From the NCBI GenBank assembly GCA_963745835.1, contig CAVUZH010000022.1:320001-384000 (forward strand): a DNA stretch of 64,000 nucleotides. The letters run 5' to 3'. The notes under the pieces were generated by a model. It ran no database searches. It saw only the letters and a list, made by a program, of their open reading frames with translations, and was not told the origin of the DNA. Each line of letters starts with the position of its first letter. Position 1 is the first letter of the stretch. Positions 4,481 through 33,113 of the stretch are shown in pieces. This DNA comes from an uncultured delta proteobacterium (GTDB lineage Bacteria; Desulfobacterota; Binatia; UBA9968). Made by a program: the position numbers and the translations under genes.

Positions 4481-4494
4481 ACCTTCGCGAGATA

Positions 4495-15643: not shown

Positions 15644-15675
15644 CTATGCGATTGTTAAATAAGCCGATGCCGCAT

Positions 15676-15700: not shown

Positions 15701-15890
15701 GATTAGAGCCTCGCAGACGCTGCGCCAACGGGGCATCTTCAGACATTTTGCTGGGAAATCCGCCAGCTGGGTAGTACTCGGATGATCCTAAGGGAGTTTG
15801 AGCTTCGACGACAGAACGGTCAATGAATTGAAGGGTACGGCATTGAGAATCTCTAGTGACGATAGCGAGCCGAAAGGAAAAACTACTCGA

Positions 15891-16306: not shown

Positions 16307-16978
16307 CTAGATCGGCCACTGCTCCAATCGATACGCCTGCTCCCAGAACATAAACTCATATCGGCTGCTGAGGATGAAATGATCGAGGAGAAGCTTTTTT
16401 TCTCCAGGTTTTGCCGCGCCGCCCAGTGCGTCCATCAGTTGAATTTGCTCCCGTACGGGCTTCCAAAAATCTTCGGAAGCATAGGTTTCGATCCACTCCC
16501 GGTAAATCTTTGGCTTGCTCGGCGCTCCCTTTTGTAGGCGGCGGCCGGCTTCACCATAGATCCAGTAGCAGGGAAGAACAGCCGCGACGATCTCGCTGAG
16601 ACTGCCGCTACGCGCGACCGACTGTAGATGACCGATATATGCTTGCGTGATTGGCCCCTTGCGCACCCTGTCCAACTGTTCGCCCGATAGGCCGAGCGTT
16701 TTGCCGAAACTCGCGTGAAAACTGCGCTCAACTTCGACCGCCCCCAATGCATGGCGGGCAAACAACTCGAGCGTTTCGAGGTCAGGCGACTTGGCCGCGC
16801 CTTGGCAAAGAACTTGAGCGAAGTCGAGCAGGTAAACGTAATCCTGAAGGATGAAATAGGTGAACCGATCCATCGGCAAGGTTCCGGCGTGCAATTCACG
16901 CAGAAACGAGTGACGCTCAATCGCTTGCCATATTCGCTGGCTGCGATGTCTTAATACCGCGCTGAATTTTTCTGCCAT
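16307..16978 (-). CDS. tenA: thiaminase II / TenA
   Basis: YFILQDYVYL, VLPCYWIY (catalytic Cys), YREWIETY, YEFMFWEQAY. Confidence 0.92.
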   Translation of the reverse strand: MAEKFSAVLRHRSQRIWQAIERHSFLRELHAGTLPMDRFTYFILQDYVYLLDFAQVLCQGAAKSPDLETLELFARHALGAVEVERSFHASFGKTLGLSGEQLDRVRKGPITQAYIGHLQSVARSGSLSEIVAAVLPCYWIYGEAGRRLQKGAPSKPKIYREWIETYASEDFWKPVREQIQLMDALGGAAKPGEKKLLLDHFILSSRYEFMFWEQAYRLEQWPI

Positions 16979-17125
16979 GGGCCAGGGTTAGCGGAAAACT
17001 GTTTGCAAGAAAAGAGGCGAAGTCTTTCGCTCAAACCGATAACATCGCTGACCCCATTGCTCGCTAACCGGCTAATCAAGTGTATGGCTGCGGCCCGCTG
17101 TGAGAGAGCGTATTTGCCGCGAATT

Positions 17126-18043
17126 TTATTTTTTTGATTGAGTTGCTTCGGCACTTGCGGCGCTTCTAAACGCGTTGAGAATGGTCTTGCTGATCGCTTC
17201 TGCTGACTTGTCAGTAGTATTCACAACCAAATCGGCTTGAGCGTAATGAGGCGTTCTGCGATCCAGAATGGCCTTCAGCTGCTTGCGGACATCGGGATGC
17301 GCGCTCAGGCGCCTTCTGTCTTTTCCCGTCTGAACGCGGTCGATCAACGTTTCGGGGGCGGCCTGAAGCCAGACCACAAAAGTATGCAGCTTCAGGCGAA
17401 GCAGGCTGTTTGGGTTCATCACCAGTCCGCCGCCGGCTGCGATCACCCCTGGGGTTTTCTTCAGTATTCGCTCGAGGATCCTTTCCTCGACCGCGCGGTA
17501 ATAATTCTCCCCTTCCAAATCGAAAATCTCGGGGAGCGAAAGTCCTGTGTCTTTAACGATCAGCGCATCCAATTCGTAAAACGGCACTTTGAGGCGCCGC
17601 GCCAGGATATTGCCGACCGTAGTTTTTCCGGCGCCGCGCATTCCGATGAGCGAGATATGGGGGCCCTCTGAGCCGTCCAGATAGGACGACAAACAGCTCA
17701 GGATTCGAGAGATTTGCTCATCCGGCCGGTTTTTTAAAAGCGCCATAACCTGCTTCACAGACGTGCTTGAATCCTGCGTGTTAGCTTGATTATCACTGGG
17801 CAGAAGATCCGTCAGCGAAGTCTGCAGGGCATCGGCTAGGTTAATCACGCTCGCCAATGACGGATTGGCGTTGCCTTTTTCGACCTCGATAAGGAAGCGA
17901 TCGCTCAACCCGGAGAGCTGCGCCACCCGTTTGAGAGTTATACCCCGTCGTTGGCGCAACTTCCGGACCTCCTGGCCCAGCTTTGCCAAGTAAAGCCGGC
18001 TAGGATCAGCGGTATTTGATTCGCCGGCGCTTCGTTTTGCCAT
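17126..18043 (-). CDS. XRE-HTH plus shikimate-kinase-like regulator (BzdR/BoxR type)
   Basis: N-terminal HTH (VEKGNANPS); C-terminal P-loop LIGMRGAGKTTVG. Confidence 0.85.
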   Translation of the reverse strand: MAKRSAGESNTADPSRLYLAKLGQEVRKLRQRRGITLKRVAQLSGLSDRFLIEVEKGNANPSLASVINLADALQTSLTDLLPSDNQANTQDSSTSVKQVMALLKNRPDEQISRILSCLSSYLDGSEGPHISLIGMRGAGKTTVGNILARRLKVPFYELDALIVKDTGLSLPEIFDLEGENYYRAVEERILERILKKTPGVIAAGGGLVMNPNSLLRLKLHTFVVWLQAAPETLIDRVQTGKDRRRLSAHPDVRKQLKAILDRRTPHYAQADLVVNTTDKSAEAISKTILNAFRSAASAEATQSKK

Positions 18044-18759
18044 TATTGATGCAATCGGTTTTTCTCCACACTAGGTATCTGGAGTCCTAGCTTTATAATT
18101 AGTGGATTCACTTCTTTAATGTACTCGTTGCGCGCCTGCTCGTTACTGCGGCGCTTGAGCCCCCAATACCGGTACCGCTCGGAACGCTTCGAGTCGGAGC
18201 GTCCAAACATATCCAACGCTTTGGGGTACCAGAAGTCGACGGCTTTTTGCAATCGCTCCCTGCTCTCGTCCCCTTTGGCCACCAGTTCTGCCGCCTTACT
18301 TCCTCCGTAACCTACATGGCCGATCTCCTCTTTGATAATGTGAGGCAGAATCTGGGCTAATGGTTGATAACTGCAGCCGACGAATTCCTCGAGTTGGTAA
18401 CGGCCGACGCGATCGATGAGATAGCCGAAAATGGCGAAATCCTCCCACGTGTTGATCTTCCCCCGAAACGCTTCCACGTAGCGTTTCTGATTCGGCCAGC
18501 TGAGCACATACGACACGTCCTGCCCGATATCACCCGCCAACCGGGCAATCTTCCGAAAGTGATCCATTTCTTCAGCAGCAGTCTTCGCCACCATGATTTG
18601 GTCCGCCTTGGTCGGCGCATTGGGTAATATGTCTTTCACGTACAGGTGCGGCCCACCGATCTCGCAATCGGCCTGAATCGCTAGAACCCGCTTGAGCAAA
18701 TCCTGAAATTCAGGATCCATCTTTACAACGTCTTTCAGAGCTACTTTATCGTTAAACAT
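18043..18759 (-). CDS. PaaA/BoxB-like ferritin-fold di-iron aryl-CoA epoxidase subunit
   Basis: ADCE, EEMDH, EEIGH di-iron motifs; WYPKALDMFGRSDS, WGLKRRSN. Confidence 0.8.
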   Translation of the reverse strand: MFNDKVALKDVVKMDPEFQDLLKRVLAIQADCEIGGPHLYVKDILPNAPTKADQIMVAKTAAEEMDHFRKIARLAGDIGQDVSYVLSWPNQKRYVEAFRGKINTWEDFAIFGYLIDRVGRYQLEEFVGCSYQPLAQILPHIIKEEIGHVGYGGSKAAELVAKGDESRERLQKAVDFWYPKALDMFGRSDSKRSERYRYWGLKRRSNEQARNEYIKEVNPLIIKLGLQIPSVEKNRLHQ

Positions 18760-19201
18760 ACGCACCTCCGTTTCTTGCTAACTAAAGCTAGCAAGATGCG
18801 AACTATAAGGCAACATACAGTAAGATTTTAGCACGAACTATATTTCAGTTATCGACGTTCTTCACGTGACCCGAGCTCGGGCAGCTGCCGCAGTTATGAT
18901 CGTGAGCGGACAGCCCCAGTAACGGCTGATTTTGGAGACTCGTTTATCGCGTGAGCTCGTGTTCGCGTGCGTTGTTCCTGCTCGTTTGGAAATCTGTCGA
19001 TGACTTTGACAAAACACGATTACGAACCGTTGGATCGACTCGGTCGGGCTTAGCGGGCGCGATTCTGGCGATGACGAGTTTGAGGAGCAAACTTTTTGCC
19101 CCGGTCAAAGCAAAAATTTTGAGAGTCGGAAGTTAGGCAGCGCTCGCTAAACCAAGGTTGGCTATTGTACCGGTGGGAAGCTTAGTCTGAATCGCGCAAT
19201 T

Positions 19202-20047
19202 TCACATACGGTCTTGAGAAGATCGGAGCCCTCTGAACACCCGCTCGTCTTGGTGGCAGACGATACAGGAAGCTTGCCCGCGCTCTTCCAAATTGGAGAC
19301 AAGCGCATACGTCAATCCATTGTCCGACCATGTGAGCACTTTCCAACCATTTACAGATTGAAAATGAAACCGCAGCCCTTCCCAAAGGATCTCTTCACCA
19401 CCTGATGGTCGCGCCACCGCATCCGAGGTCACCACCAAAGAGATCGGGTGACCCTTTAGGCGATAAACAATATAGGCTGCATAATCTTCCTTGAACCCGA
19501 CCAAACGTCCGCCTTCGACGTGGTAAGGCTTCGGTTCCGCCGCCTGCGGATAATCAGGCAGTTTCAAATTGAAGCCGAGCTTTCCGGCGAACCAGGTGGA
19601 AATCTTTTCAGGCGATTCGCTGAACACTTCTAGGGGTAACTGTCCCTTGAGGTACCGCACATGATTGTTGACGGCCATGGTAACAAACGAGCCGCGGTCT
19701 TCTTGGAGAGAGTTTGGCACAGCCAGCCAAAAAGCAGCGAACGCGAGCAGCAAAAGAGCGCAGGCCGCAATGATTGGCCGCGAACAAACAAATTTGGTTC
19801 GCCTGCCTGAGCTCTGCACCAGCTGGGCAACGTTTGCCTGCAATGATGCCGGAGCCGTATAAACCGGACGCGCGCTGCGTATCGCCGAAACCAACTCACG
19901 CTCGGCCTCCAAAGCGGCACGGCAGTCGGGGCAGCTCTTGATGTGTGTTTCCACAGCCAAGCGCTCGCCGTTCTGGAGCTCGTCGTCCAGATACAACGGG
20001 ATATGTTCTAGAATGTGATTATCCACTTCCACGCTTTCGCCGCACAA
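19202..20047 (-). CDS. membrane anti-sigma factor (zf-HC2) with C-terminal CxxCH
   Basis: HIKSCPDC zinc motif, one TM helix, periplasmic GGRL...LTYALVS, terminal CIVCH. Confidence 0.88.
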   Translation of the reverse strand: MCGESVEVDNHILEHIPLYLDDELQNGERLAVETHIKSCPDCRAALEAERELVSAIRSARPVYTAPASLQANVAQLVQSSGRRTKFVCSRPIIAACALLLLAFAAFWLAVPNSLQEDRGSFVTMAVNNHVRYLKGQLPLEVFSESPEKISTWFAGKLGFNLKLPDYPQAAEPKPYHVEGGRLVGFKEDYAAYIVYRLKGHPISLVVTSDAVARPSGGEEILWEGLRFHFQSVNGWKVLTWSDNGLTYALVSNLEERGQASCIVCHQDERVFRGLRSSQDRM

Positions 20048-20603
20048 CCATTAAGGCATTGGTTTTCTCAGCCAACATACTGCGAAGTTCCGCCCGCGCG
20101 CGATTCAAACGGGACATGACGGTTCCGGCGGGGCATCCCAAGATCGATGCGATTTGCCGGTAGCTGAATCCTTCGAAATAACGGAGCACCACGACTTCAC
20201 GAAACATTTCCGGCAAGCCTGAAATCGCCAGACGAATCTTTCCGGAGATCACGTTGCGCTCAAAATGATCCTCCGGGCGCTCTCGCTCATCGGACAACCA
20301 TGGTTGCAGCGGACCGCCGTCGATTCGATGTTTTCCCAGCAGAACAAACTCCGGCCCGTTGGCACGCCGGCGCCATTCATTGATCCAGATGTTGCGCAGA
20401 ATAGTAAAAAGCCACACTTTGGGATCGCTCTTAATGGCGGTGTGGGTCATTCCTTTGATGGCGCGGAGGCAGGCCTCTTGGACTAAGTCCTCGGCGTCCG
20501 TGCGATTGCTAGTCAAAGTCATGGCGAATCCGTAGAGCGCGCCAAGGTTTTCGAGAATAGCGTGCTCACCGTTGCCAGACGCTGTTTTCCGGAATCGGAT
20601 CAC
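20019..20603 (-). CDS. ECF RNA polymerase sigma factor
   Basis: DAEDLVQE, WLFTILRN, GFSYRQIASILGCPAGTVMSRLNRAR. Confidence 0.93.
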   Translation of the reverse strand: MIRFRKTASGNGEHAILENLGALYGFAMTLTSNRTDAEDLVQEACLRAIKGMTHTAIKSDPKVWLFTILRNIWINEWRRRANGPEFVLLGKHRIDGGPLQPWLSDERERPEDHFERNVISGKIRLAISGLPEMFREVVVLRYFEGFSYRQIASILGCPAGTVMSRLNRARAELRSMLAEKTNALMVVRRKRGSG

Positions 20604-20867: not shown

Positions 20868-21623
20868 ATGTCCCATCGCTGTGTATTTTCCTTCGCCTTT
20901 TCTAAGCGCGTGTGGCTCTCGCTCGCGCTTGCAGCGATCCCCCCTTCTGGCGCCTGGTCTTATGAAGAAATTAAGGTTGCCGACGGCGGCACGATCGAGG
21001 GAAAGGTCGTGTTCCGAGGCACCGTGCCGAGTCCCCGGAAGGTGATTCCGACGCAGGATCAAGAGGTTTGCGGCGGGCCAAGAGACGAGCCGCGGCTCGT
21101 TCTTGGATCCGATAACACCGTCCCGGGAGCCGTTGTTTTCTTGAAGGGAGTCGAGAAAGGCAAAGCGTTCGAAAAGCCCAAGAAGCCTCCGGTTGTTGAT
21201 AACGCGAAGTGCAAGTTCGAGCCTGAGATTCAGGTCGTCCCGGCCGGGACGGAAATCCTGATCCTCAACTCGGACCCCGTGCTCCATAACACCCATGGTT
21301 ATCTCTTGACCGATAGCCGCAGGGGACGCACGGTTTTCAATCAGGCGTTGCCGCAAAAGGGACAACAGGTAAAATCGACCCTCAAATCGCCGGGGGTAGT
21401 GGACGTCGCATGCGACGTCCACGGTTGGATGCAGGGCTGGATCGTGGTGGCGGACAACCCGTATTTCGCGGTGACCGAAAAAAACGGCACCTTTGCGATC
21501 AAAGACATCCCGCCGGGAAAATACACCTTGGCTACTTTTCAACCTTATGTCGGAGTCAGAGAAACGCCGGTTACCGTTGAGTCGAAGAAAACCAACAACA
21601 TCAACGTCGAGCTAAAAAAATAG
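20868..21623 (+). CDS. secreted cupredoxin-like / carboxypeptidase-regulatory-like domain protein
   Basis: Signal peptide; NSDPVLHN and CDVHGWM (type-1 Cu-like ligands); GTFAIKDIPPGKY. Confidence 0.8.
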   Translation: MSHRCVFSFAFSKRVWLSLALAAIPPSGAWSYEEIKVADGGTIEGKVVFRGTVPSPRKVIPTQDQEVCGGPRDEPRLVLGSDNTVPGAVVFLKGVEKGKAFEKPKKPPVVDNAKCKFEPEIQVVPAGTEILILNSDPVLHNTHGYLLTDSRRGRTVFNQALPQKGQQVKSTLKSPGVVDVACDVHGWMQGWIVVADNPYFAVTEKNGTFAIKDIPPGKYTLATFQPYVGVRETPVTVESKKTNNINVELKK

Positions 21624-21667
21624 CGGCAAAGACGCCGCAGGGCTCCTGTTTCAGGAAGGAGGAAGCA

Positions 21668-22807
21668 ATGAGCGACTTTGACCGTGAACGGCGCGAGGCT
21701 CAACGTGAATTGCACAACCCTGATCGGAGGCCCGATCCATCTCTCAGTATAACGCGGCGAACTTTCCTTCATAAGTCGTTAGTAGCGGGAGCTGTAACCG
21801 GAGCGGCGACGTATGGATGGTTTCCGTTGATCAATACGCTGACTCTGGCTCATGGGGCGCAAGCCGCGTTTAGCTTTGCCTGGCTTTCCGATACACACCT
21901 CTACCCCAAGAACGTCAATACGCGCTTTGTCGAGAAAGCCGTACGGGCGGTGAAAGAAATCCAGGCCATGAAGCCGGCGGCGGATTTTCTTATGTTCGGT
22001 GGCGATCTGGCCCAACTTGCCGACCCTGTAGAGCTGCGCCTCGGCAACGACATTCTCAAGGAAATAACCATCAAAAAGCATTTTATTCCCGGCGAGCACG
22101 ATTGGTATCTGGACATGGGGAAAACCTGGAATAGTCTATTCGGCAATTCACCTTGGACCTTTGAACATAAAGGCGTCCAGTTCATAGGCCTGGATACAGT
22201 GAGTCGAGCGCCTGACTATTGGTCAGCGACCAAGATGACCCCGAAAGAGAGGATGGGTCACATGGCTGGGCTGGACGGAACAGTGGCTGGACCATGGGCC
22301 GGGGTAGGCGGCGACCAGCTGCAGTGGCTGAACAAAACGCTTTCGCCTTTACCCAAAGACAGAGCGATCGTAATTTTCAGTCATAATCCTCTCTACGAGT
22401 ACTATCCTCCATGGAATTTCTGGGTCCGTGATTGGCGCCAAGTTCATGAGGTTCTCAAGCCCTATACCAATGTCACGAATATCCACGGTCATACACATCA
22501 GGTCCTCTACAACGAAATCGGTACGATGAGATCGATCGGCATGCTAGCGACTTCATGGCCATGGCCCTATGCGCCGGAAGGAGTTCCCACGCTGACCAAG
22601 CCGATGATCCGAGTAAATCCCGGAGATCACTTTGACGGCGTCGGCTGGGGGAAAATTACCGTGAGCGCGGCGCCAAAGGTCGATTACGAATACATGATGT
22701 GGCGTAAAGCCGTTTATGCAGAAGCGGAAGTTGATTCGGGTACCGGCGACAACAACAACCAGAGATTGAGACCGCGGATCGCCGATCAAATGTGGCCTTA
22801 TAAATGA
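21668..22807 (+). CDS. Tat-exported calcineurin-like metallophosphoesterase
   Basis: TRRTFL twin-arginine motif; SDTH, GGDLAQ, PGEHD, SHNP, HGHTH. Confidence 0.88.
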   Translation: MSDFDRERREAQRELHNPDRRPDPSLSITRRTFLHKSLVAGAVTGAATYGWFPLINTLTLAHGAQAAFSFAWLSDTHLYPKNVNTRFVEKAVRAVKEIQAMKPAADFLMFGGDLAQLADPVELRLGNDILKEITIKKHFIPGEHDWYLDMGKTWNSLFGNSPWTFEHKGVQFIGLDTVSRAPDYWSATKMTPKERMGHMAGLDGTVAGPWAGVGGDQLQWLNKTLSPLPKDRAIVIFSHNPLYEYYPPWNFWVRDWRQVHEVLKPYTNVTNIHGHTHQVLYNEIGTMRSIGMLATSWPWPYAPEGVPTLTKPMIRVNPGDHFDGVGWGKITVSAAPKVDYEYMMWRKAVYAEAEVDSGTGDNNNQRLRPRIADQMWPYK

Positions 22808-22839
22808 TAACGAGGTGACGAAAGGAAAGGTTAGTCGTC

Positions 22840-23298
22840 ATGAGAAAGATTCTCCCGTGGCACGCTGGACTGCTTCTCATAGCAGTATTTCTTTTCGTTT
22901 TTGCTTCTCGAATGGATCATGTCCTGGCGCACAAGGAAAAACATACCCCGGAACAACTCAAAGCATTCTTTGACGTTTTCATGGAGCAGGTGCGGGTCGG
23001 GGATCTCTTGTTTCACGGCGATGGCGAGATGGAAAAAAAGCTCGGAACAAATTTATCTCGGACCGGTATGGCCTGCGCCATGTGTCACCCCTTTGCATCG
23101 GACACACACCCGCACGAATTTCCTAAGTTTGGGGAACAGACTCAGGAGTTCGCGACCTTGCGGGATATGATCAACTGGTGCATCGAGAATCCAAACGAGG
23201 GCGAAAGAATCGACGTCAACGGCCCTGCCATGAAAGCAATGGAAGCGTATATTTACTGGTCTAACAAAGGCTCAGTGTTGGATGCGGGGAAACACTAG
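22840..23298 (+). CDS. monoheme cytochrome c, SoxA/TsdA-like domain
   Basis: Signal peptide, CAMCH, TLRDMINWCIE...MKAMEAYI. Confidence 0.75.
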   Translation: MRKILPWHAGLLLIAVFLFVFASRMDHVLAHKEKHTPEQLKAFFDVFMEQVRVGDLLFHGDGEMEKKLGTNLSRTGMACAMCHPFASDTHPHEFPKFGEQTQEFATLRDMINWCIENPNEGERIDVNGPAMKAMEAYIYWSNKGSVLDAGKH

Positions 23299-23427
23299 CG
23301 GCCAGCTCAAAAGCCTCATATGCTTCGTTGCCCTCAATTGACTAGCTGCAACGTACTGTCTGAGTATGCTTCCGCTCGTCGATATTTCGCACGCTTGGTC
23401 TCTGAGATCATTTTGAGCAGCCTGCAA
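23295..23427. mobile_element. MITE/REP-like element (degenerate copy 2)
   Basis: CTAGCGGCCAGCTCAAAA ... TTTTGAGCAGCCTGC ends; shares internal blocks CTTCGTTGCC, CTCAAT, TCCGCTCGTCGAT with the 8150 copy. Confidence 0.65.
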
Positions 23428-23554
23428 TCGCAGTTTTCAGCTACTGGTTGACTAAATTGGTCTCTGGGAAAAGGGATAAGCCAAGGTGAGGGTGCATGCT
23501 GATCACACATAACCCGCTGATCAAAGTAGGGAAATATTGCAGGCAACATCTAAG

Positions 23555-24385
23555 ATGAATTCTCCGGATATTTCCCGAAGAAGTTTCTGCAGGTGGAGTT
23601 CTTCACTTGTGTTGGCGGGAATCTTTACAGGTCTGAAGAATCGGCTGGGGCTGGCGCTTGATCCGGAATCGCCGGACGGCATGCTGACGGATATGCATAC
23701 GCCCAGGCTGATTCTGCCGACTATGACACGAAATGGAAATCAAGTTCCTGTCGTCGTCAAGATGAACCATCCGATGGAATTGGGCCATTACATCCGACGA
23801 GTTGAGTTCCGTAACGAAACCGACCCGATTCCCTCCAAAGGGATTTTCCACCCCACCGCCGCTAATGGTGAGACCTACTTGGCTTTCCAAGCCCGAATGG
23901 ACAGCGGCACCTCGACAGTCCTCGCTATCGCCGAATGCAGTTTACACGGGACTTGGATCGCCCGCCGCCAGATTACGATTCCCGATGGGCAAGGCGGCTG
24001 CGCCACGGTCGGCGTGCCCAAAGACGCTGCGGCCACAGAAGAGATTGTCCCGCCCGTGATCAGGATTCCTGAATTGGTCCGCAGGAACCGCCTGACTAAA
24101 GGAGAAATGGCCGAGGTCCAGGTCCAATTCAAACACCCAAGCAAGACCGGTCTTGCTTATGATGATAAAAAATTCGTCCAGATCGAAGAGCCTTTCTACA
24201 TCACATCGATGCAGGTTCTGTACGGGGAGCGCTTGGTCAGCCGCTACGAAATGACCGCAGGTTTGAGCGACAATCCCTTTTTGAAGTTCAAGCTCAAGTT
24301 CACAGAAGAAAAACCCATTCGGGTTGTTTTTACCAACAGTAGGGGCCGGCAATTCAGCGCCAGCGCGCCGGTGGTTCTATCTTAA
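23555..24385 (+). CDS. fused SoxY-SoxZ-like sulfur carrier
   Basis: Tat motif SRRSF; SoxY-like half (NGNQVPV, RMDSGTSTVLAIA, GQGGC); SoxZ-like half (HPSKTGL, LSDNPFLKFKL). Confidence 0.75.
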   Translation: MNSPDISRRSFCRWSSSLVLAGIFTGLKNRLGLALDPESPDGMLTDMHTPRLILPTMTRNGNQVPVVVKMNHPMELGHYIRRVEFRNETDPIPSKGIFHPTAANGETYLAFQARMDSGTSTVLAIAECSLHGTWIARRQITIPDGQGGCATVGVPKDAAATEEIVPPVIRIPELVRRNRLTKGEMAEVQVQFKHPSKTGLAYDDKKFVQIEEPFYITSMQVLYGERLVSRYEMTAGLSDNPFLKFKLKFTEEKPIRVVFTNSRGRQFSASAPVVLS

Positions 24386-24390
24386 ACTTC

Positions 24391-25602
24391 ATGGGCCGGC
24401 TCTCGCTGACAGCGGCGGTTATCCTGATCGGCATACTTTGGAAGCTCGTCCCAGGAAAGACATTATCGGAGATGTTGGGATCGACAGGAGCGGACGGTGT
24501 TGTTGCGGGCAGCGCCGAACCGGCGGCCAGCTTTCATAACAAGCCGCTTCCAGCTGCCCAGTGCGGCTTTTGCCACCCCAGACACTATGACGAATGGCGC
24601 CGCTCATCTCACGCGAGCTCTCTGAGGTCCGATGATTTTGTCAGGACATTCTCGCAATATCTCGACTCGGTCGGCGAGCAGGCGCGAGAAGATTCGCAAT
24701 CATCCATGGCTTGTCTTTCGTGCCATGCCCCTCTTCTGAAACATGCCGAGCCGGGAATCGTTGGTCAGGTCGCCGGTTTTGTGCTGGCCCGGGAAACAGA
24801 AAAACTAGCCGGCTTCGAAGTTGGTTGTGTCGCTTGTCACGTTGCTGGAAACCGCGTCTTTGCCGGCCCGATCGAAAAGCCGCAGAACAATCCGTTCCAC
24901 CTTTCAAAATTTTCCCCGTCCTACAGAGAAGCGTCGTTTTGCGCCGATTGCCACACCTGGACTGCCTCTACGATTCCCTGCTCCAACGTCTACACGGACT
25001 GGAAGCTAAGCCGAGCGGCCAAAGCAGGGACAACCTGCCAGTCCTGCCACATGGCTGAGACCAGCGGCAGCGCCGCTGCCGGAGGACCCGAGAGAAAAAT
25101 ACACGACCATGGTTTTCCGGGCGCAGGTTCGGCCGCCATGCTGCAAAAAACAGTGGTGCTTGGTCTGAAAGCCAACTTTCCGAAGAATCGTCTCGAAGTG
25201 ACCGCCACGATCCGCAATCTTACTCCTCATCGGGTGCCCGATGGCTGACCGTGGAACAGCTACGCGGTCCTGGAGGTGACCGTAGCGGATGAAACCGGAT
25301 GGGAATTCGAGACCATAAAACGGACCTACGCCAATTTCGGCATCGATAAAAATGGCGAGAGTACTGGGATCGCTTGGAAGATTGTCAGGCAATCGCCGGA
25401 TTCAACGGCATTGAGAGCGGAGGAAGTTCGCATAGAAAAAATCAGTTTTAACGTCGAGCCGCGGGACGGCAAGCGATTCACGATCCAGGCGAGGATGCGT
25501 TACCAGTACGCGCCCGCGCCACAGGATGGCTCCCGTCAAGAGAGTGACGGCAGGCAAATGGCGCAGGCAACCTTAACGCTACCGGGCAAGCGCCCGTCTT
25601 AG
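24391..25602 (+). CDS. pentaheme cytochrome c, probable selenoprotein (Sec at TGA 25246-25248)
   Basis: Five CxxCH (CGFCH, CLSCH, CVACH, CADCH, CQSCH). ORF 25276-25602 is in the same frame with no other stop; readthrough gives HRVPDG-U-PW in 403 aa. Confidence 0.8.
25259..25286 (+). promoter_or_regulatory. putative bacterial SECIS hairpin
   Basis: GCTAC(GC)GGTC-CTGGAGGT-GACCGTAGC stem-loop starting 10 nt after the TGA, with a G-containing apical loop. Confidence 0.65.
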
Positions 25603-25620
25603 TTTGCAAGAGCAAATCGC

Positions 25621-27027
25621 ATGGCAGATCACGTGATTGAAAACGGCAACGAGGTCATCAACCCAGAGCTGATCAAGGGTTGGCTGCTTTGGGGGTTCGT
25701 CTGGGTGCTTTTAGCGCCGACCCTCGGCGTTATCATCTCGACCAAGTTCACCTATCCCGAATTTTTGGAGGGAGTCCCGGCGCTGACGTTCGGCAGGTTA
25801 CGGCCGATTCACGTCAATGGCGTGATCTTCGGGACTTTTTCGACTCTCTTCATCGGGCTTTGCTACTACATTGTGCCCAAGCTGGCGCAGGTCCGGATCT
25901 ACAAAGAGGAATGGGGCTATCCCATGCTTTGGATCTGGAACCTGGCTCTGATCGCCGGCTTCGTCTCGCTCGCTCTGGGATACAATCAAGGCCTTGAAGC
26001 CGCCGAGTTTCCTCTTGTCATCGACATCATCATCTGGATTGCCTTGCTCGCCGTTACAGTCCAATTTCTCGTTACCGTGGCGCGGCGCAAGGAGCCGGGA
26101 CTTTACGTGAGCCTCTGGTATCTGATTGCCGCTCTGGTTTGGATGGATATCAACTGGCCGTTCGGCAACTTTATTATTCCGTACGCGATCCCCGGCATAA
26201 ACAATGCCGCGCTCCATGGTCTCTACATCCATTACATCGTGGGGCTCTGGATCACGCCCGCTGGCTATGTGCTGATCTATTATTTCCTGCCGGCAAGCGT
26301 TAGAAATCCGATCTACAGTCATAAGCTTTCGCTGATCGGCTTCTGGTCTCTCGCGCTCTTTTATCCATTCGTCGGCATTCATCACTATCTATTCAGTCCG
26401 ATCGCCGACTGGGCGGAGACGATTTCGATTATGATGAGCGTTTTGCTGATTTTGCCCGTGTGGACGGTGCTGCAAAATTTTTTCGGCACGATGATTGGGC
26501 GCTGGCAAGGCTTCGCCGGTAATCTCACCGCCAAATTCCTCATCACGGGCGCCCTCATGTACATTATCGGTTGTTTTCAAGGATCGACCGAGGCGCTGCA
26601 GGCCTTGCAGCGGCCCACCCATTTTACCGACTTCGTCATCGCGCACTCACACCTGACGATCTTCGGCACGTTCGTGCTTTGGGCTCTCGCAGGAGTCGTC
26701 TATGTCTGGCCGCGCGTGACCGGCCGCGAGCTCTATAGTTTCCGGATGGCCAACTGGGGCTATTGGCTGATCACCATGGGCATCTCCGCCATGGGTGTGA
26801 TTCTGACAGCACAAGGATTACAGCAAGGTTTCATGCTGATTGCCGGCGCAGAGTGGCTCGACTCGCTTGTCTCCATGCACCCCTTCTGGTGGTTCAGAAC
26901 GTTTTCGGGGATCTCCATGGACGTGGGTATGAGTCTTCTCCTGCTTAGCTTGTTGTGGGGACCGAAGTCGCCGGCGGCGGAATCATCTCTGGCACGCCAC
27001 CCGCAAACCGCGCCTGCGGCCGTTTAG
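25621..27027 (+). CDS. cbb3-like (C-family) heme-copper oxidase subunit I, divergent
   Basis: FGRLRPIHVNG, YIHYIVG, FYPFVGIHHY, IAHSHL: all six His ligands plus a helix-VII Tyr; PIYSHKLS. Confidence 0.85.
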   Translation: MADHVIENGNEVINPELIKGWLLWGFVWVLLAPTLGVIISTKFTYPEFLEGVPALTFGRLRPIHVNGVIFGTFSTLFIGLCYYIVPKLAQVRIYKEEWGYPMLWIWNLALIAGFVSLALGYNQGLEAAEFPLVIDIIIWIALLAVTVQFLVTVARRKEPGLYVSLWYLIAALVWMDINWPFGNFIIPYAIPGINNAALHGLYIHYIVGLWITPAGYVLIYYFLPASVRNPIYSHKLSLIGFWSLALFYPFVGIHHYLFSPIADWAETISIMMSVLLILPVWTVLQNFFGTMIGRWQGFAGNLTAKFLITGALMYIIGCFQGSTEALQALQRPTHFTDFVIAHSHLTIFGTFVLWALAGVVYVWPRVTGRELYSFRMANWGYWLITMGISAMGVILTAQGLQQGFMLIAGAEWLDSLVSMHPFWWFRTFSGISMDVGMSLLLLSLLWGPKSPAAESSLARHPQTAPAAV

Positions 27028-27040
27028 GAAAGAAAACAGA

Positions 27041-28696
27041 ATGCGATACGCAAAAACAGTAGCTGTCATTGCCGGCTTTGGCTTCATAACCCTGGCGCTT
27101 TTTGTCCAGGGACTTCTCCCCGCCCTGCTCCCGGAATCGCGCTCGGAGACAGTCTCACGGGCGGTCAGGACCCGTCTCACCGAGCTCAAATGGATCGAGT
27201 ACCCGGCTGAGAACTACACGGAGCTGGAGCAATTAGGAAGGCAAGTCTATATTCGAGAAGGCTGTTGGTATTGTCACTCTCAATATATCCGCCCGGTCAC
27301 CGGCGAAGATCAACGCTGGGGGCCGGTTTCCCAGGCGGGAGAATACGCCTTCGATGTGCCCCACCTGTTTAGCACCCGCAGGATCGGACCCGACCTCACT
27401 CGCGTCGGGCTGAAATACAGCGACCACTGGCATTTCGCCCATCACTGGAATCCGCGCTTGGTGGTGCCTGACTCGAACATGCCCTCTTTCCCTTGGCTGT
27501 ACGAGCAGATCACGGTCGGATTGGTGGAAAAAGATGGAAAGCTCGCCTTTAAAGACGATTCCGCGCTGCGCAAGATTTTTACCTTCAAAGAAGGAAGCGA
27601 AATCCAGATCCTGCCCAATATCGATGGGCTCGCTTTCGCTCGGGAGCGCGATGGAGTTCCGGTATTAAACTTCGATCCGTTGCCTGACCCGCCAAAGACA
27701 AAAACAATCACCATCGTCACGCCGACGCGAGAGGCGGAGGGATTGGTCGCTTATATTCAGAAGCTCGGCATGAATCGCGGCCAGTGGCGCGACCTCTTCG
27801 AACCTCAACGGGTTTTTGTCAGCCAGTTCTCCATTCCGGAGTCCCAGGACTGGATAGCTCACGGCAAGGAAGTTTACCTCCGGCGCTGCGTCGGTTGCCA
27901 TGGCGAGAAAGGAGACGGCAACGGTCCGGCAGCGACGTTTCTCAGTCCGCGACCACGCGACTTCAGGGACGCGGTCTTCAAATTTCGCATCACCCCGTCA
28001 GGCGCCCTGCCAACCGAAGGCGATCTTTACCGGACGATTACGCGCGGCATCCGCGGCACGGCGATGCCGCCCTGGCACGAGATTCCGGAAAAACAGCGCC
28101 TGGCGGTGATTCTATTTATCAAGACTTTCTCACCGGCCTGGAAAGACAAAAATTTGAAGGAAGCGCCGGTTAATCTTCCCGATCCTCCCGCGCCCAGCGA
28201 AGAGCTCATCGCTCAGGGCGAGAAACTTTATATCAACGAAGGAAAGTGCTGGAACTGCCATGGCGGTCCCGGGATAAAGGACAACCAACCGTTCAACTAT
28301 CCCTGGGGCCGGGGCCCATCGGCGCCGACTTTGAAAGACGATTGGGGCTTCCCCTTGCTCGCGAGCGATTTCACGACAGGAATATTTAAGTCGGGATCCG
28401 ACGTGACCGATATTTTTCGGACCATGAGCACGGGTCTGAACGGCGCAGCCATGCCGTCTTTCGCTACCAACCTGACCGATGAACAGCGCTGGGCCATCTC
28501 CTACTACGTGCTGAGCCTTTCCGCTTATCTCGATCCGCTGCATCAAAAGAAGCTCCAGATCCCGGAGCAGGTGAAGGCCGCGCTCGACGATCCGAATTTA
28601 AAGACGCCGACATGGCGAGCGGCGTTCGATCCGACAAAAGCGGAAACAGCGGTAGCCGGTGAAAGACCCAAGAACTATCTTAGGATCTCGGAATGA
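27041..28696 (+). CDS. CcoO-like subunit II fused to two extra cytochrome c domains
   Basis: GRQVYIREGCWYCHSQ, RRIGPDL, SNMPSFPWL, then CVGCH and CWNCH with distal AMP motifs. Confidence 0.88.
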   Translation: MRYAKTVAVIAGFGFITLALFVQGLLPALLPESRSETVSRAVRTRLTELKWIEYPAENYTELEQLGRQVYIREGCWYCHSQYIRPVTGEDQRWGPVSQAGEYAFDVPHLFSTRRIGPDLTRVGLKYSDHWHFAHHWNPRLVVPDSNMPSFPWLYEQITVGLVEKDGKLAFKDDSALRKIFTFKEGSEIQILPNIDGLAFARERDGVPVLNFDPLPDPPKTKTITIVTPTREAEGLVAYIQKLGMNRGQWRDLFEPQRVFVSQFSIPESQDWIAHGKEVYLRRCVGCHGEKGDGNGPAATFLSPRPRDFRDAVFKFRITPSGALPTEGDLYRTITRGIRGTAMPPWHEIPEKQRLAVILFIKTFSPAWKDKNLKEAPVNLPDPPAPSEELIAQGEKLYINEGKCWNCHGGPGIKDNQPFNYPWGRGPSAPTLKDDWGFPLLASDFTTGIFKSGSDVTDIFRTMSTGLNGAAMPSFATNLTDEQRWAISYYVLSLSAYLDPLHQKKLQIPEQVKAALDDPNLKTPTWRAAFDPTKAETAVAGERPKNYLRISE

Positions 28697-28771
28697 GAAA
28701 AGTGAATTTTAGCGCCGAAGAAAATGGTTTCGGCCAACGCCGAAGAGTGACATCCCAATGAGGTCAGAGCC

Positions 28772-28927
28772 ATGCTCGAGCTAATCACGTTGATAGAATT
28801 CATTGTTGCCTTTCTGATGGGACTTGCGGCTTGCTGCTTTCTCTTCTGGGGAATTCTCGATGGCGCCTTCGACAATCTCGAAGATATCAAGCACCGGATT
28901 CTGGAGATTGAAAAAGATGAACCATGA
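28772..28927 (+). CDS. CcoS/FixS-like small maturation protein (not in ORF track)
   Basis: MLELITLIEFIVAFLMGLAACCFLFWGILDGAFDNLEDIKHRILEIEKDEP; FxW...G.FD..E pattern. Confidence 0.7.
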   Translation: MLELITLIEFIVAFLMGLAACCFLFWGILDGAFDNLEDIKHRILEIEKDEP

Positions 28928-29246
28928 ACATCGCAGCTCGGACGAGCTTGAACACTACGCCGGTGGCGAGATCCAGGCGCGCCACGGGATCGTCAACAGA
29001 TGGCTGCTGGGACTGTATGCCGTGCTCTTTCTCTGGTCGATTCACTACCTGATTGGGCCGTTCGATGGACTGCGGCCGACGTTTGAATTTTGGGGCTGGG
29101 GAGGGTTAGGGGCGGGATTATCCAGCAAGGGCGCAGAACAAGGAGTCGAAGGACTCCAAGTCATCGGTGTGATCGCCCTTTCGATCGTCATGATTTCGGT
29201 CGCCGGCTTCTTTATTTGGGTTGTGATTCTAGCGCGGAAGAAATAA
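28917..29246 (+). CDS. small two-TM protein resembling a CcoP N-terminal anchor, no heme motif
   Basis: GEIQARHGIVNRWLLGLYAVLFLWSIHY pattern; overlaps the ccoS-like stop. Confidence 0.55.
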   Translation: MNHEHRSSDELEHYAGGEIQARHGIVNRWLLGLYAVLFLWSIHYLIGPFDGLRPTFEFWGWGGLGAGLSSKGAEQGVEGLQVIGVIALSIVMISVAGFFIWVVILARKK

Positions 29247-29432: not shown

Positions 29433-30392
29433 TCAGATGCGGCCTTCAACCTTTTCAGCGCCGTCACTCAAGGCTCGTTTCGTTGATCGTTTGCGTCGTC
29501 CCTCACCGAGCAGGGCGTTGACCAGAATCAAAATCGCGATCGCATACGTGGTACTCCCCACCGCGAACATGACAATGCCGCCGCCGATTTGATCTTCCTG
29601 GGGCGTCAAACCCCACAGCCGCAGAGCCGTTTGGTAGTGCGGGTAGAGAACTTCGCTCGAAAGCGCGATGACACCGGCTAGGATCGTATCTTGAGTGGCG
29701 GCGAAAAAAAGATAGACGATCGACATTCCGTGTTGGATCGGTGCGGGGTGCGACGCAGGCTGAATCACCGGCCACCAGAATACCAGCGCGGTGAGAAAGA
29801 AAAGCACATGCTCGAGATCGTGGATCCACGGCACACGCAAAGCCGTGTCATAGAGAGCCGGATAATGCCAGGCCCACAGATTGATGACATAGAGGCCCCA
29901 AGCCACGGGCATCCAGCCTAAGATATCGCGTGCCCGGCGTATCGCCGAATGACGAGTCAGAAGATGGCCCGCCCGCAATCGCGAATTCCCACGCAGGCCC
30001 CACAACAGGACGGGAACCGGATTAGCCAGCAGGATAAATGGCGGCGCAACCATGATCAGTAGCTCGTGCTGCACCATATGGGCGATGAGCAAGTAAGAGG
30101 CAAGATCGTCGAGGGGCGACAACAGCGCGGCGCCGATGGCAAGCAAACCGATTTCATAAATAACCAGTTGAGAGAGGTTCGCCACTCCACCGATCTCTCT
30201 TAGGCGAAACCAGCCACGCATATAAAGCGCTGCAAAAATGGCCAAGACCGCAATAACATCCCAGCGCCAATGCCAATCGGTGAGCACCCTATTGCCATCG
30301 GCGATATGGGCGGGAGCCGGCGCGGTCCAGCCCATCAAAAAAAACGTTGCAATGAAAAAGACCGCCCAGTGGGTATCTTCTTGACTGGCCAT
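29433..30392 (-). CDS. ctaG: cytochrome c oxidase assembly factor CtaG (Caa3_CtaG type)
   Basis: SPLD, AHMVQHELL, WAWHYPALYD, HDLEH, FWWPVI, EDQIGGG. Confidence 0.85.
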   Translation of the reverse strand: MASQEDTHWAVFFIATFFLMGWTAPAPAHIADGNRVLTDWHWRWDVIAVLAIFAALYMRGWFRLREIGGVANLSQLVIYEIGLLAIGAALLSPLDDLASYLLIAHMVQHELLIMVAPPFILLANPVPVLLWGLRGNSRLRAGHLLTRHSAIRRARDILGWMPVAWGLYVINLWAWHYPALYDTALRVPWIHDLEHVLFFLTALVFWWPVIQPASHPAPIQHGMSIVYLFFAATQDTILAGVIALSSEVLYPHYQTALRLWGLTPQEDQIGGGIVMFAVGSTTYAIAILILVNALLGEGRRKRSTKRALSDGAEKVEGRI

Positions 30393-30622: not shown

Positions 30623-31915
30623 GTGCCATTCTCTGCTCCCGCGAAGCACGCAACCAACGAGTCTAAGTTTTTTTATGGCTGGGTCATTGTCGCCGTCGGC
30701 TTCCTCGCGCACATCGCATCTGCATTTTCGATATCGAGCACGCTGAGCGTTTTTCTTAAACCACTGTCGCAGGACTTAGGAATTTCCCGGGGAGTTTTCT
30801 CCTTGATCCGATCCGGAGAAATACTCGTTGGCGCGGTGGCAGCGCCATTGGTCGGTTCTCTATTGGATCGGCATGGAGCAAGGTGGCTTATAGCCGCAGG
30901 GGGGTTGGTGTCGGGAGCGGGCTTTTTACTGCTGGGTCAGGCGCGGGATTTTTGGCAGTTTGCAATCGTTCGCTGGCTTCTTATCAGCCCAGGCGACATG
31001 CTCATGGGCTCCATGGTCGTGAATGTTTCAATCTCCCAATGGTTCGTGCGCATGCGCGGCCGCGCTCTCGCCCTTGCCGGCATGGGACACGGCTTAGCCA
31101 AAGTCTGTATGCCGTTGCTGGCGGCCTCGCTCATCCTCTACGTCGGCTGGCGCGGCGTATGGGTGGTCTTCGGCGCGCTAACGCTCGCGCTGGTGGTCGG
31201 TCCTTCGTTACTGCTCATGCGGCGGCGCCCGGAAGACATGGGTCTTTTGCCAGATGGCAGATCCACCGGTGAAAGCGACAGCGTGACCGCAGAGCAATCA
31301 AACAAGTTGAAATCGCGACGGCGCCCGGCTGAGGAGGTATTTTGGAGTCGTGGTGAAGCATTACGCACTCGCGCCTTCTGGCTCATTGTCACCACGTTCG
31401 GAGTTGCCCACGTGGGCGTGACCGGCCTCAACCTTCACGTCTTTTCCTATGTCAGCGATCAAGGTCATCCGGATATGGTGGCAGCGCTGGTAATGAGCAT
31501 CATTGCTGTGATGCAGTTTAGTACACCGATGGTCTGGGGAGTGCTCGCCGAACGCGCAAACGTCGCTAGGCTGATCATGGCGAAGTTTTTGATTCAAGCG
31601 TTCGGCATTCTGTTGGCGCTTTCCGATCCCGGAGTTGTTTCCCTCTACGCCGGCTTTTTTCTTTACGGCATCGGCATGGGTGGGACCTCGATCTTGGCGG
31701 AGATGATTTGGGCCAACTACTTCGGGCGCATCTCGCTGGGCCGAATCCGCGGCATGGGCTCCTTGATCACCAGCGCATTTTCCGCCGGCGGCCCGCCGTT
31801 CTTCGGTCTGTTGTTCGACGCCACCCAGAGCTATTCCCTCTCCTTCAGCATCTTCATCGCCATGCTGTTCGCCTCGGCGTTCCTAAGCCTTTTCCTAAGA
31901 GCGCCGGCAAAGTAA
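30623..31915 (+). CDS. MFS transporter (OFA/MCT-like)
   Basis: FFYGWVIV, GSLLDRHGAR, QWFVRMRGRA, YFGRISLGRIRG; about 12 TM helices. Confidence 0.9.
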   Translation: MPFSAPAKHATNESKFFYGWVIVAVGFLAHIASAFSISSTLSVFLKPLSQDLGISRGVFSLIRSGEILVGAVAAPLVGSLLDRHGARWLIAAGGLVSGAGFLLLGQARDFWQFAIVRWLLISPGDMLMGSMVVNVSISQWFVRMRGRALALAGMGHGLAKVCMPLLAASLILYVGWRGVWVVFGALTLALVVGPSLLLMRRRPEDMGLLPDGRSTGESDSVTAEQSNKLKSRRRPAEEVFWSRGEALRTRAFWLIVTTFGVAHVGVTGLNLHVFSYVSDQGHPDMVAALVMSIIAVMQFSTPMVWGVLAERANVARLIMAKFLIQAFGILLALSDPGVVSLYAGFFLYGIGMGGTSILAEMIWANYFGRISLGRIRGMGSLITSAFSAGGPPFFGLLFDATQSYSLSFSIFIAMLFASAFLSLFLRAPAK

Positions 31916-31994
31916 CCCTCATTTTTGCTTCGGCTCGCTTACTTGTGCGCGATAGCAATTCTGTCTATCTTTCATGTTTCGGAGCCGCGAACAC

Positions 31995-33077
31995 ATGAAG
32001 CCAGAGATCAGTACCCACGTTGAACCACATGCGCAATTTAACGGCCCGATCCGGCGAGCGGGAATCAATTGCAATCTTTGGTACATGATCGCGATGTCGT
32101 CGGAAATTCAACAACGACCAGTGCGGCGGGAGATTTGGAAACAGCCGGTCGTGCTCTTCAGAACTCGACAGGGCGAGATGCGCGCATTGGAAGATCGCTG
32201 CGCGCATCGTCTTGTGAGATTAAGCCGCGGACGAGTGAAAGACGACAAGATCGAGTGCGCCTATCATGGCTGGCAGTTCAACGGCGCCGGTCGCTGTGTG
32301 CATATTCCGCACCTGGGATCCAGAACGACTTTGCCAAACTCTACAGTTCGATCGTTTCCGGTAGTCGAAAAGCACGGTTTCGTCTGGATATTTCCGGGCA
32401 ACCCGGCATTGTCTGATATTACTGCCCCTATGGAAATGAACGAATGGGATGACCTCAACGAAATCTCCAGCTTTGTGACGTTGAGGACTCGATCTCATTT
32501 TTCCTACCTCATCGAAAACTTGATGGACATGTACCACGGCAGCTTACATGCGCAGTACCAGGTATGGATAGCCGAATCGCTTAAGGAAGTGGTTGAAGGC
32601 GAAAAACAGGTTTCGGCAACTTACCAAGCCACGACGTACTACGAGGTAAAAAATCTCGGCTCCATTCTCCAGCTGTTCATCCCCTCACTCCGAAAGCTTC
32701 ATTCGGTTCCTCTAACCGTCACCTATGAATATCCCAACTGGAAGTCGGCGCTTGGAGAGGACTTCAAGATCTACTGCCTCATTTGCCCGGTTAACGAACG
32801 TTCAACCAATGCTTACCTTATTCACTACACATCCCTGGCCAAGTTCAAAGGCTTGAATACTGCGCCGGTTGCCATTCGACGCCTTTTGAAGCGCGCTCTG
32901 AGCAATGTCGCTAAAAAATTGTTGGCGAATCTAGTTCGTCAGGACGTCATAATGATCGAGGACGAACAGGCAGCCTTCGACCAGGACCCGCTGCGCCAGC
33001 CATTTGAAGTCAACCGCGCCATCCGCCGCGTACAGGAACTAGTTCGGCGCCAGGCAACTGACCAACCGCTCAATTAG
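31995..33077 (+). CDS. Rieske non-heme iron oxygenase alpha subunit (possibly CruH-like)
   Basis: CAHR...CAYHGW Rieske motif; ENLMDMYHGSLH iron motif. Confidence 0.85.
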   Translation: MKPEISTHVEPHAQFNGPIRRAGINCNLWYMIAMSSEIQQRPVRREIWKQPVVLFRTRQGEMRALEDRCAHRLVRLSRGRVKDDKIECAYHGWQFNGAGRCVHIPHLGSRTTLPNSTVRSFPVVEKHGFVWIFPGNPALSDITAPMEMNEWDDLNEISSFVTLRTRSHFSYLIENLMDMYHGSLHAQYQVWIAESLKEVVEGEKQVSATYQATTYYEVKNLGSILQLFIPSLRKLHSVPLTVTYEYPNWKSALGEDFKIYCLICPVNERSTNAYLIHYTSLAKFKGLNTAPVAIRRLLKRALSNVAKKLLANLVRQDVIMIEDEQAAFDQDPLRQPFEVNRAIRRVQELVRRQATDQPLN

Positions 33078-33113
33078 CACATCGGCTGGGCGCGCTCTCA
33101 GGATTTCACACCG

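Follow-up and report, generated by a model that had tools for sequence, protein, structure and literature searches.

A nine-gene operon with a SoxY–SoxZ carrier fusion, a pentahaem selenoprotein and its own cbb3-type oxidase as a possible periplasmic sulfur oxidation system

An uncultured delta proteobacterium of the Binatia (assembly GCA_963745835.1) carries on contig CAVUZH010000022.1 nine co-directional genes, here called g01 to g09. They occupy positions 20868–29246 on the forward strand of the window, i.e., the 64,000-nucleotide stretch of DNA that was analysed (positions 320,001–384,000 of the contig), and are spaced by 5 to 238 bases or overlap shortly. Our reading, which we hold about as readily as we doubt it, is that this operon carries out a carrier-based oxidation of reduced inorganic sulfur in the periplasm and delivers the electrons directly to its own cbb3-type oxidase. 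The substrate would most likely be either sulfane sulfur, polysulfide or sulfide, or else a compound that resembles thiosulfate. The parts that can be recognised by homology, namely a carrier cysteine arm, a His/Cys haem of the SoxA/TsdA type and a selenocysteine (Sec) containing relative of a polysulfide reductase, all stem from sulfur redox enzymology. Further support comes from the fixed arrangement of the first three genes (g01 to g03, the trio) and their linkage to the oxidase, from the repeated, independent association of this trio with SoxY-type carriers, from the sulfur-type catalytic residues of g03, g04 and g05, from the co-occurrence of g05 with the module, from the fact that the module is the sole Sox-like equipment of the assembly, from an oxidase that keeps the O2-reducing residues of cbb3, and from a natural fusion of g01 and g02. 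The arrangement of g01 to g09 is far beyond chance, because the identical gene order recurs in dozens of genomes. Domain searches bear out the gene list that the original prediction, made from the letters alone, had given for this interval, except for one weak assignment ("CcoP-N-like").

Gene neighbourhoods were compared by a locus scan based on g02 alignment with one genome per species, in which 216 loci were found and 80 kept. The counted set consists of 80 distinct loci pooled from two scans, from which the duplicates L018 and L038 were dropped, as was L016, whose contig begins inside g04; the presence of a gene is given below as a share of the loci judged for it.

The carrier candidate g04 (23537–24385, + strand) has its likelier start at the ATG at 23555, where close homologs begin. 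It bears an S-R-R-x-F motif for twin-arginine translocation (Tat), followed by SoxY (60.8 bits), SoxZ (66.5 bits) and Desulfoferrodoxin domains, all above the Pfam cut-offs. Its arm motif Q-G-G-C-A (G154-C155) is internal rather than C-terminal because SoxY and SoxZ are fused: from His137 the chain runs 18 residues on to G-G-C155, then through a linker of lower model confidence into SoxZ. The AlphaFold2 model (predicted local distance difference test, pLDDT, 88.5) matched SoxY 2ox5_A (TM 0.83), SoxZ 2oxg_E (TM 0.93) and the superoxide reductase (SOR) 4brv_A (TM 0.73) in Foldseek. The N-terminal domain also aligns to the Ignicoccus SOR 4bk8 (E 2.3e-5), with H54, H78, H84, C134 and H137 falling on ligand positions that we take to be the four His and one Cys of the SOR iron site. 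Judged by alignment and model, g04 is a hybrid of a SoxY-type carrier and a SOR-like domain. At least 90% of 83 fusion-homolog rows retain the arm Cys; 53 of the 83 keep all five SOR ligands together with Cys155, and the ligand-free rows keep the Cys in 26 of 27 cases. Such proteins are few, as g04 matched just 257 cluster representatives of 1.84 billion at E 0.001 or better.

All true-Sox NCBIfam models scored below their cut-offs on the module proteins; g04 reached 30.8 bits with TIGR04488 (cut-off 125) and 54.7 bits with TIGR04490 (cut-off 76). Its best NCBIfam match was TIGR04557 (90.6 bits, below the cut-off of 140), the quinoprotein dehydrogenase-associated carrier, which is likewise a SoxY–SoxZ fusion with an internal G-G-C. 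Three homologs that are members of TIGR04557 (P0184, P0235 and P0223) score 220–246 bits, compared with 90–99 bits for g04 and its kin, and in an IQ-TREE phylogeny 25 of the 27 ligand-free rows, including these three, form a clade (support 98/89) apart from g04. The carrier is thus separate from the SoxYZ-like proteins associated with pyrroloquinoline quinone (PQQ) dehydrogenases, a grouping that the original prediction had raised as speaking against it, and no PQQ dehydrogenase was found among the genes scanned at 16.3–34.6 kb.

With four His and one Cys at the ligand positions and a Tat signal, g04 resembles the centre II SORs and the TAT-SOR class of SORGOdb, as presented in the accessible part of PMC3116461; it differs from them by the added Cys arm and SoxZ domain and by having no Lys before the first His. 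The ligand set retained in those 53 of 83 homologs, the TAT-SOR class on record (PMC3116461, same part), an extracytoplasmic function (ECF) sigma/anti-sigma pair at the head of the operon and the selenite reduction reported for MccSep, a relative of g05 (accessible part of 10.1101/2025.11.18.688581), would together fit a defence of the envelope against reactive oxygen or sulfur species. Under ECF sigma control, the SOR-like domain would then reduce superoxide, or bind toxic species, with electrons from the cytochromes, and g05 would detoxify polysulfide or selenite. We consider such a function improbable. The Lys beside the first His (E-K-H motif) is catalytic in SOR, yet position 53 of g04 and its relatives is L, I or M in 39 of the 53 SOR-type rows, R in just 3 and never K, which argues against ordinary superoxide reductase chemistry. 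Moreover, the conservation of the arm Cys equals or exceeds that of the metal ligands, proteobacterial versions have the trio and the oxidase yet no SOR-like domain, and a private oxidase of the proton-pumping type would serve no evident need in defence.

g05 (24391–25602, + strand) has five CXXCH motifs and is a distant relative of MccSep/ExtKL. Its in-frame TGA (25246–25248, + strand) is read as selenocysteine 286. Reading through this codon raised the score against NF040886 (ExtKL) from 81.1 to 122.8 bits, with positions 46–408 of the 423 in the model covered; the gene stays below the equivalog cut-off of 250 bits (113.2 bits in a six-frame search). The same codon is TGA in the related loci L010, L011 and L012, with the protein sequence conserved beyond it, and 100 of the 103 homolog gene calls of 250–310 aa end exactly at H-x-x-P-D-G, i.e., at the TGA. 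Five full-length orthologs (63–68% identical) carry Cys at the Sec position. The genome has the capacity to decode Sec, with selB on the same contig (394 bits, cut-off 242) and a tRNA-SeC gene in the assembly. Because the TGA is conserved, Cys orthologs exist and both selB and tRNA-SeC are present, the Sec candidate is real, and the claim of the original prediction that a selenoprotein is added to the Sox-like set holds. A possible selenocysteine insertion sequence hairpin lies 15 nt after the TGA (25264–25283, + strand); it is near-invariant in five loci, including silent positions, with no covarying pair and a single-sequence fold that does not surpass shuffles (z -0.43).

A profile of the g05 family aligned to MccSep 9wt8_A with E 1.7e-37, placing C197 on C239 and U286 on the X position that represents U325. 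MccSep (= ExtKL; GSU2937-2936 of Geobacter sulfurreducens, PDB 9wt8-9wtc) was described in 2025 as a polysulfide reductase; according to the accessible part of the preprint, C239 ligates haem 2, U325 in the D-G-U-P loop attacks the substrate, selenite is also reduced and binds beside the Sec, and a relation to the reverse TsdA/SoxAX reaction is considered possible by its authors (10.1101/2025.11.18.688581). Shared with g05 are the five c haems, the distal haem-ligating Cys at haem 2, the Sec in D-G-U-P and the C-terminal part after the Sec loop, an Ig-like domain in MccSep. Of the two substrate-binding residues of MccSep, R83 and K372, the former lies in one of several inserts that are missing from g05, and the latter aligns beside a K/R/E position (counted by hand). 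Moreover, MccSep belongs to the ext cluster of a sulfur-respiring anaerobe, whereas g05 lies in an oxidase operon beside a SoxYZ-type carrier, and its reaction may therefore run in a different direction. The best structural-sequence match of the g05 family was the pentahaem cytochrome c552 5ze8_A (E 1.4e-41), which is that of Thermochromatium tepidum according to an extended-data legend in the same preprint (10.1101/2025.11.18.688581). Neither the membership of g05 in MccSep/ExtKL nor the SOR iron ligands kept in g04 had been noticed in the first reading of this DNA. The haem part of g05 (24391–25248) also weakly matches NF041198 (E 1e-5), another family of the NCBI catalogue, named "UshA-like (seleno)protein" and hence UshA-like and Sec-bearing by name.

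In the window's own family, g02 was detected in 6 of 60 other genomes sampled. A g05-type gene below the cut-off, always with one TGA, occurs in five of the six g02-positive genomes and in none of the 54 g02-negative ones, on account of which g05 belongs to the module in this family. Two g02-negative family genomes carry an ExtKL/MccSep gene above the cut-off with one in-frame TGA (G232:C227:8–1102 and G206:C247:10453–11514). That the reduction or detoxification of selenium (or tellurium) oxyanions is the main job of the operon, as selenite bound and reduced beside the Sec of MccSep might suggest (accessible part of 10.1101/2025.11.18.688581), seems very unlikely to us, since g05 is present in just 5 of 62 judged loci, with the rest of the module kept without it, and the reduction of oxyanions needs no oxidase as electron sink. 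Accordingly, of the undescribed periplasmic sulfur/selenium pathway with a dedicated oxidase that had been proposed, the linkage of trio and oxidase genes and the sulfur-type parts stand, and a selenium substrate is unsupported beyond this side activity of MccSep.

g01 (20868–21623, + strand) is an exported protein with a domain of the type-1 copper pattern and a CarboxypepD_reg-like C-terminal domain (Pfam E 3.3e-7, just below the cut-off). Its Copper-bind and amicyanin matches are weak (E 0.0089 and 1.1e-4), but every one of the 76 aligned homologs has the residues of the type-1 copper pattern, His140, Cys182, His185 and Met188. Two paralogs of g01 (33–34% identity) lie elsewhere in the assembly (C16:487088-487772 and C3:971182-971763); g02 to g07 are single-copy. 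A natural fusion protein (P0463, 536 aa) combines CarboxypepD_reg-type g01-like domains with a metallophosphoesterase 73% identical to g02, a hint that g01 and g02 may be in contact.

g02 (21668–22807, + strand; Metallophos E 1.7e-9) is a Tat-exported dimetal metallophosphoesterase (motif T-R-R-x-F-L). Alignments of 48 and of 64 homologs show no variation at D75, H77, D113, E143-H144-D145, H239, H275, H277 or the twin Arg, and identity across phyla is 66–90%. One metal-2 ligand position, which we take to be usually Asn in the superfamily, is Glu in g02. The fold neighbours of its predicted structure were 3d03, 3ib7 and 1ute (GpdQ, Rv0805 and purple acid phosphatases); as the model is poor (pLDDT 62.5), these matches indicate only a core of the GpdQ/Rv0805/purple-acid-phosphatase type. 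The NCBIfam search gave no match of g02 to TIGR04486 (SoxB). Judging from the predicted fold, g02 represents a different branch of the SoxB superfamily and not the SoxB/5'-nucleotidase branch.

g03 (22840–23298, + strand) is a monohaem cytochrome c of 152 aa, with one CXXCH in a single domain, and matches the SoxA/TsdA cytochrome domain PF21342 with 36.8 bits (cut-off 27). Cys114 aligns with the Cys residues of SoxA 1h31 and TsdA 4wq7 that serve as haem ligands, and none of 76 homologs deviates at either CXXCH or Cys114. Against the SoxA equivalog TIGR04484, g03 reached 30.2 bits (cut-off 110). The NCBIfam models of SoxX had no match in the cluster except a weak stretch inside the CcoO protein g07. 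The idea that each Sox role has a different stand-in here therefore applies to g02, which comes from another superfamily branch, and has to be given up for g03 and g04, which are true homologs of the SoxA/TsdA domain and of SoxY plus SoxZ.

The oxidase is encoded by g06 to g09. g06 (25621–27027, + strand; COX1/CcoN E 5e-70) aligns over its length to CcoN of 3mk7_A (E 1.8e-53) and keeps the haem His residues, three CuB His and the Tyr (LALFYPFVGIHHY) at positions that we take to be the haem and CuB ligands and the cross-linked Tyr of cbb3. We rejected g06 as a nitric oxide reductase: the cbb3 Tyr is present, and the Glu after the first CuB His, which we would expect for such an enzyme, is missing. 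By its residues g06 is a divergent O2 reductase of the C family. The NCBIfam equivalogs stayed below their cut-offs (ccoN TIGR00780 216 vs 583, ccoO 143 vs 201 and ccoP 46 vs 180 bits).

g07 (27041–28696, + strand) is a CcoO (FixO E 9.6e-44, 149.9 bits; 178 bits and below the cut-off for NF011054) fused to a CcoP-like dihaem cytochrome c part with two cytochrome c domains, and g08 (28772–28927, + strand) encodes a small CcoS/FixS-like assembly protein (PF03597, 27 bits vs a cut-off of 23.1). The operon shares with the canonical cbb3 oxidase (CcoNOQP with ccoGHIS; 3mk7 of P. stutzeri) CcoS, a homolog of CcoO and, in the CcoN-like subunit, the cross-link Tyr and the residues for CuB and both haems (b and b3). 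The fusion of CcoO to a dihaem part sets this oxidase apart; the scanned genes included no separate CcoP, and none of CcoQ, CcoG or CcoH was observed there. The last gene, g09 (28917–29246, + strand; alternative start 28824), encodes a small membrane protein with two spans that many loci retain downstream of the oxidase genes. It has no family in Pfam or NCBIfam, and the sole pointer comes from the Atlas, a lead of 0.82 to a cluster with FixP_N in 38% of its members; its earlier designation as CcoP-N-like is thus not confirmed. A Rokubacteria locus (L026) holds two sets of CcoN-like, CcoO-dihaem, CcoS and g09 genes (3972–7238 and 12639–15994), which flank a block of sigma factor, trio and carrier.

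The gene neighbourhood is conserved across genomes, as the original prediction had proposed to check. Wherever this could be judged, g02 is immediately preceded by g01 (75 of 75 loci) and immediately followed by g03 (73 of 73). Of the 63 loci judged for a CcoN-like gene, 56, spread over many phyla, have one, with the oxidase genes nearly always preceded or followed by the trio; the g04-type fusion was found in 31 of 70 judged loci and g05, as stated, in 5 of 62. The fusion is absent from 49 loci, of which 11 contain a separate SoxY (10 of these also SoxZ) and nine an FCSD-like flavoprotein; any SoxY-type carrier gene, fused or as separate soxY/soxZ, occurs in 42 of the 80 loci. Trio and oxidase make up the conserved core, to which the carrier is an optional addition, and the Sec enzyme is restricted to this lineage. 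In Binatia-like loci this enzyme stands beside the carrier, and in alpha-proteobacteria and SAR324 an FCSD-like flavoprotein clusters with the carrier genes. On pSymA of Sinorhizobium meliloti, the annotation lists cbb3 subunits I and II, an SCO protein and the trio, then a flavoprotein, a c-type cytochrome, soxZ and soxY. In total, 41 plasmid records cover at least 80% of g02. A search of 120 other genomes of the phylum gave no g02 match at E 1e-50 or better, and 80 genomes of the class had only g02 paralogs of about 45% identity.

These numbers bear on a rather unlikely alternative in which the trio is part of the oxidase, with g01 and g03 as electron-entry proteins and g02 as a maturation or accessory enzyme, and the carrier genes and g05 are separate neighbours that share the oxidase or the regulator. 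The linkage of the trio to the oxidase (56 of 63 judged loci) is tighter than that to any SoxY-type gene (42 of 80), g02 and g03 are roughly as conserved as CcoN, and genes for copper delivery (SCO1, a FixI-like ATPase, CcoS and CtaG) occur in the same clusters; SCO1, the FixI-like ATPase and DsbD_2 are found in many loci that lack the fusion. However, all seven of the 63 judged loci that have no CcoN-like gene keep the trio together with g04; the trio is thus able to occur where this oxidase is lacking. For a plain electron shuttle, a His/Cys haem would also be an odd choice, and a Tat-exported dimetal hydrolase with all ligands invariant resembles a catalyst.

The same comparison touches on a donor other than sulfur. 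A metal or another inorganic compound, such as Mn(II), Fe(II), arsenite or a nitrogen compound, could be oxidised by g02 and g03 with coupling to the oxidase, and the cluster does occur in loci of Nitrospira and Thiocapsa KS1 and, beside a cytochrome P460-like gene, in a Nitrospirae metagenome-assembled genome labelled as a manganese oxidiser. We give this little credence, because SoxY/SoxZ and FCSD-like genes and the polysulfide-reductase relative recur beside the cluster and the sole catalytic motifs recognisable by homology are those of sulfur enzymes. In the Nitrospirae locus (L058) the trio is followed by the cytochrome P460-like gene, and a rhodanese-domain gene is nearby (11654–12340 and 13363–13701).

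For the oxidation of sulfur, the gene set suggests the following scheme. The MccSep-like g05 would make or break S–S bonds at its His/Cys haem and Sec, either in the oxidising direction or by exchanging sulfane sulfur with the Cys155 arm of g04. The His/Cys haem of g03 would oxidatively join a sulfur anion to a thiol or persulfide, and g02 might, by analogy with SoxB only, act as the product-freeing enzyme and hydrolyse the oxidised end group, the part that SoxB plays in the Sox cycle. Haems and the blue-copper protein g01 would then carry the electrons to the dihaem part of CcoO, from where they would go to O2. The order of these steps, like the oxidising direction of g05, is tentative, as would be any role of the SOR-like metal site. 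In other lineages, soxYZ together with an FCSD-like flavoprotein occupies the same place in the cluster. This flavoprotein (a sulfide dehydrogenase by its Pfam name) and MccSep would both handle the sulfide/polysulfide couple, which is our chief reason to suggest that sulfane sulfur may be the currency of the pathway. In the Sox system, intermediates ride on a sulfane conjugate of SoxYZ (accessible part of PMC5336275), which would fit the proposed step of carrier loading.

The parallels to the Sox system of the Paracoccus/Rhodovulum type (SoxYZ, SoxAX, SoxB and SoxCD) comprise a G-G-C Cys on a SoxY fold next to a SoxZ fold, a SoxA/TsdA-family protein with a His/Cys haem, and a dimetal hydrolase that is exported by Tat and belongs to the calcineurin-like superfamily, all of them periplasmic. 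In contrast, SoxY and SoxZ are fused here, SOR iron ligands are found in the SoxY part, the cytochrome consists of one domain and lacks a SoxX, the hydrolase is of the GpdQ/Rv0805 kind, and the exit for electrons is a private oxidase of the cbb3 type.

Several points weigh against sulfur oxidation as the function. In 38 of the 80 loci, many of them short, the trio and oxidase core has no SoxY gene within 10 kb, hence the carrier is not obligatory. g02 lies outside the SoxB/5'-nucleotidase branch, has Glu instead of the metal-2 Asn, and its model has a pLDDT of just 62.5. The sulfur model does not explain the full SOR-type metal site that the carrier appears to have. The characterised MccSep works reductively and in an anaerobe. 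Within the family the module is an accessory trait, being found in just 6 of 60 other genomes, and control by an ECF sigma/anti-sigma pair would also fit a function in envelope stress. A more far-reaching version, which we regard as doubtful, sees the operon as a complete sulfur-respiratory unit without SoxB and SoxCD: g05 would load the carrier by reversed MccSep chemistry, the SOR-type iron centre would help to oxidise the bound sulfur, the GpdQ-like enzyme and the His/Cys haem would release the product, and the electrons would go to the private oxidase, possibly within one supercomplex.

The rest of the assembly (97.1% complete, 9.33% contamination) holds little else of this kind. g04 has its sole SoxY domain and g03 its sole SoxA/TsdA domain, and no TIGR04486 (SoxB) match at E 0.001 or better was obtained in the whole assembly. 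Thus, the earlier observation that the window has no soxAXBCD can be widened to the entire 97.1%-complete assembly for SoxB, a second SoxY domain and a second SoxA/TsdA domain. One weak FCSD_central match and two molybdopterin oxidoreductase genes were also present. The suspicion that the contig of the window (C22) contaminates the bin was unsupported; its tetranucleotide make-up is like that of other large contigs. A flanking gene of 1122 aa on this contig has orthologs with 65–87% identity in 15 of 20 family genomes (14 of 19 without the unpublished G207).

We found no study of this module among open-access papers and preprints; nothing on the cluster was found in PMC5748707, and the accessible part of the B. 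diazoefficiens paper PMC5748708 deals with a canonical sox locus and an aa3 oxidase, not with this cluster. MccSep, SoxYZ, SoxA/TsdA and cbb3 are known families; for their combination, the hybrid carrier, the g02–g03 pair and the private oxidase, our searches of that literature brought up no description. If the proposed function is true, many soil and water bacteria, among them rhizobia, Cupriavidus, Rokubacteria, Methylomirabilota, Nitrospirota and Binatia-like lineages, would have a route from reduced sulfur to oxygen that is not counted in standard surveys of sox, dsr and sqr markers. The operon also presents enzymological oddities, namely a metallophosphoesterase paired with a Cys-ligated haem, SoxY and a superoxide-reductase-like domain in one protein, and a Sec haem enzyme in an aerobic respiratory operon. 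Since S. meliloti has the core on pSymA, and further harmless bacteria that can be cultured, such as Bradyrhizobium and Mesorhizobium strains and Cupriavidus necator A5-1, carry it too, the question is open to direct genetics.

The flanks of the operon are mixed. Upstream, from 16307 to 18765, lie TENA/PQQC-like, helix-turn-helix plus shikimate kinase and PaaA/PaaC-like genes, and downstream, at 30623–34628, genes for a major facilitator superfamily transporter, a Rieske oxygenase and an amine-oxidase-like flavoprotein; none of these showed a tie to the module in related loci. Divergent from the operon, an ECF sigma factor gene (20019–20603, − strand) encodes Sigma70_r2, r4_2 and Sigma70_ECF domains and adjoins the module in Binatia-like and Rokubacteria-type loci. 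The anti-sigma factor gene (19202–20047, − strand; zf-HC2 E 1.1e-10), whose product has one membrane span and a periplasmic domain without a known family, accompanies the sigma factor gene in related loci. At the other end, the convergent gene g10 (29433–30392, − strand) encodes a copper assembly factor of the CtaG (caa3) type (Caa3_CtaG E 6.6e-54) and likewise adjoins the oxidase genes in Binatia-like and Rokubacteria-type loci.

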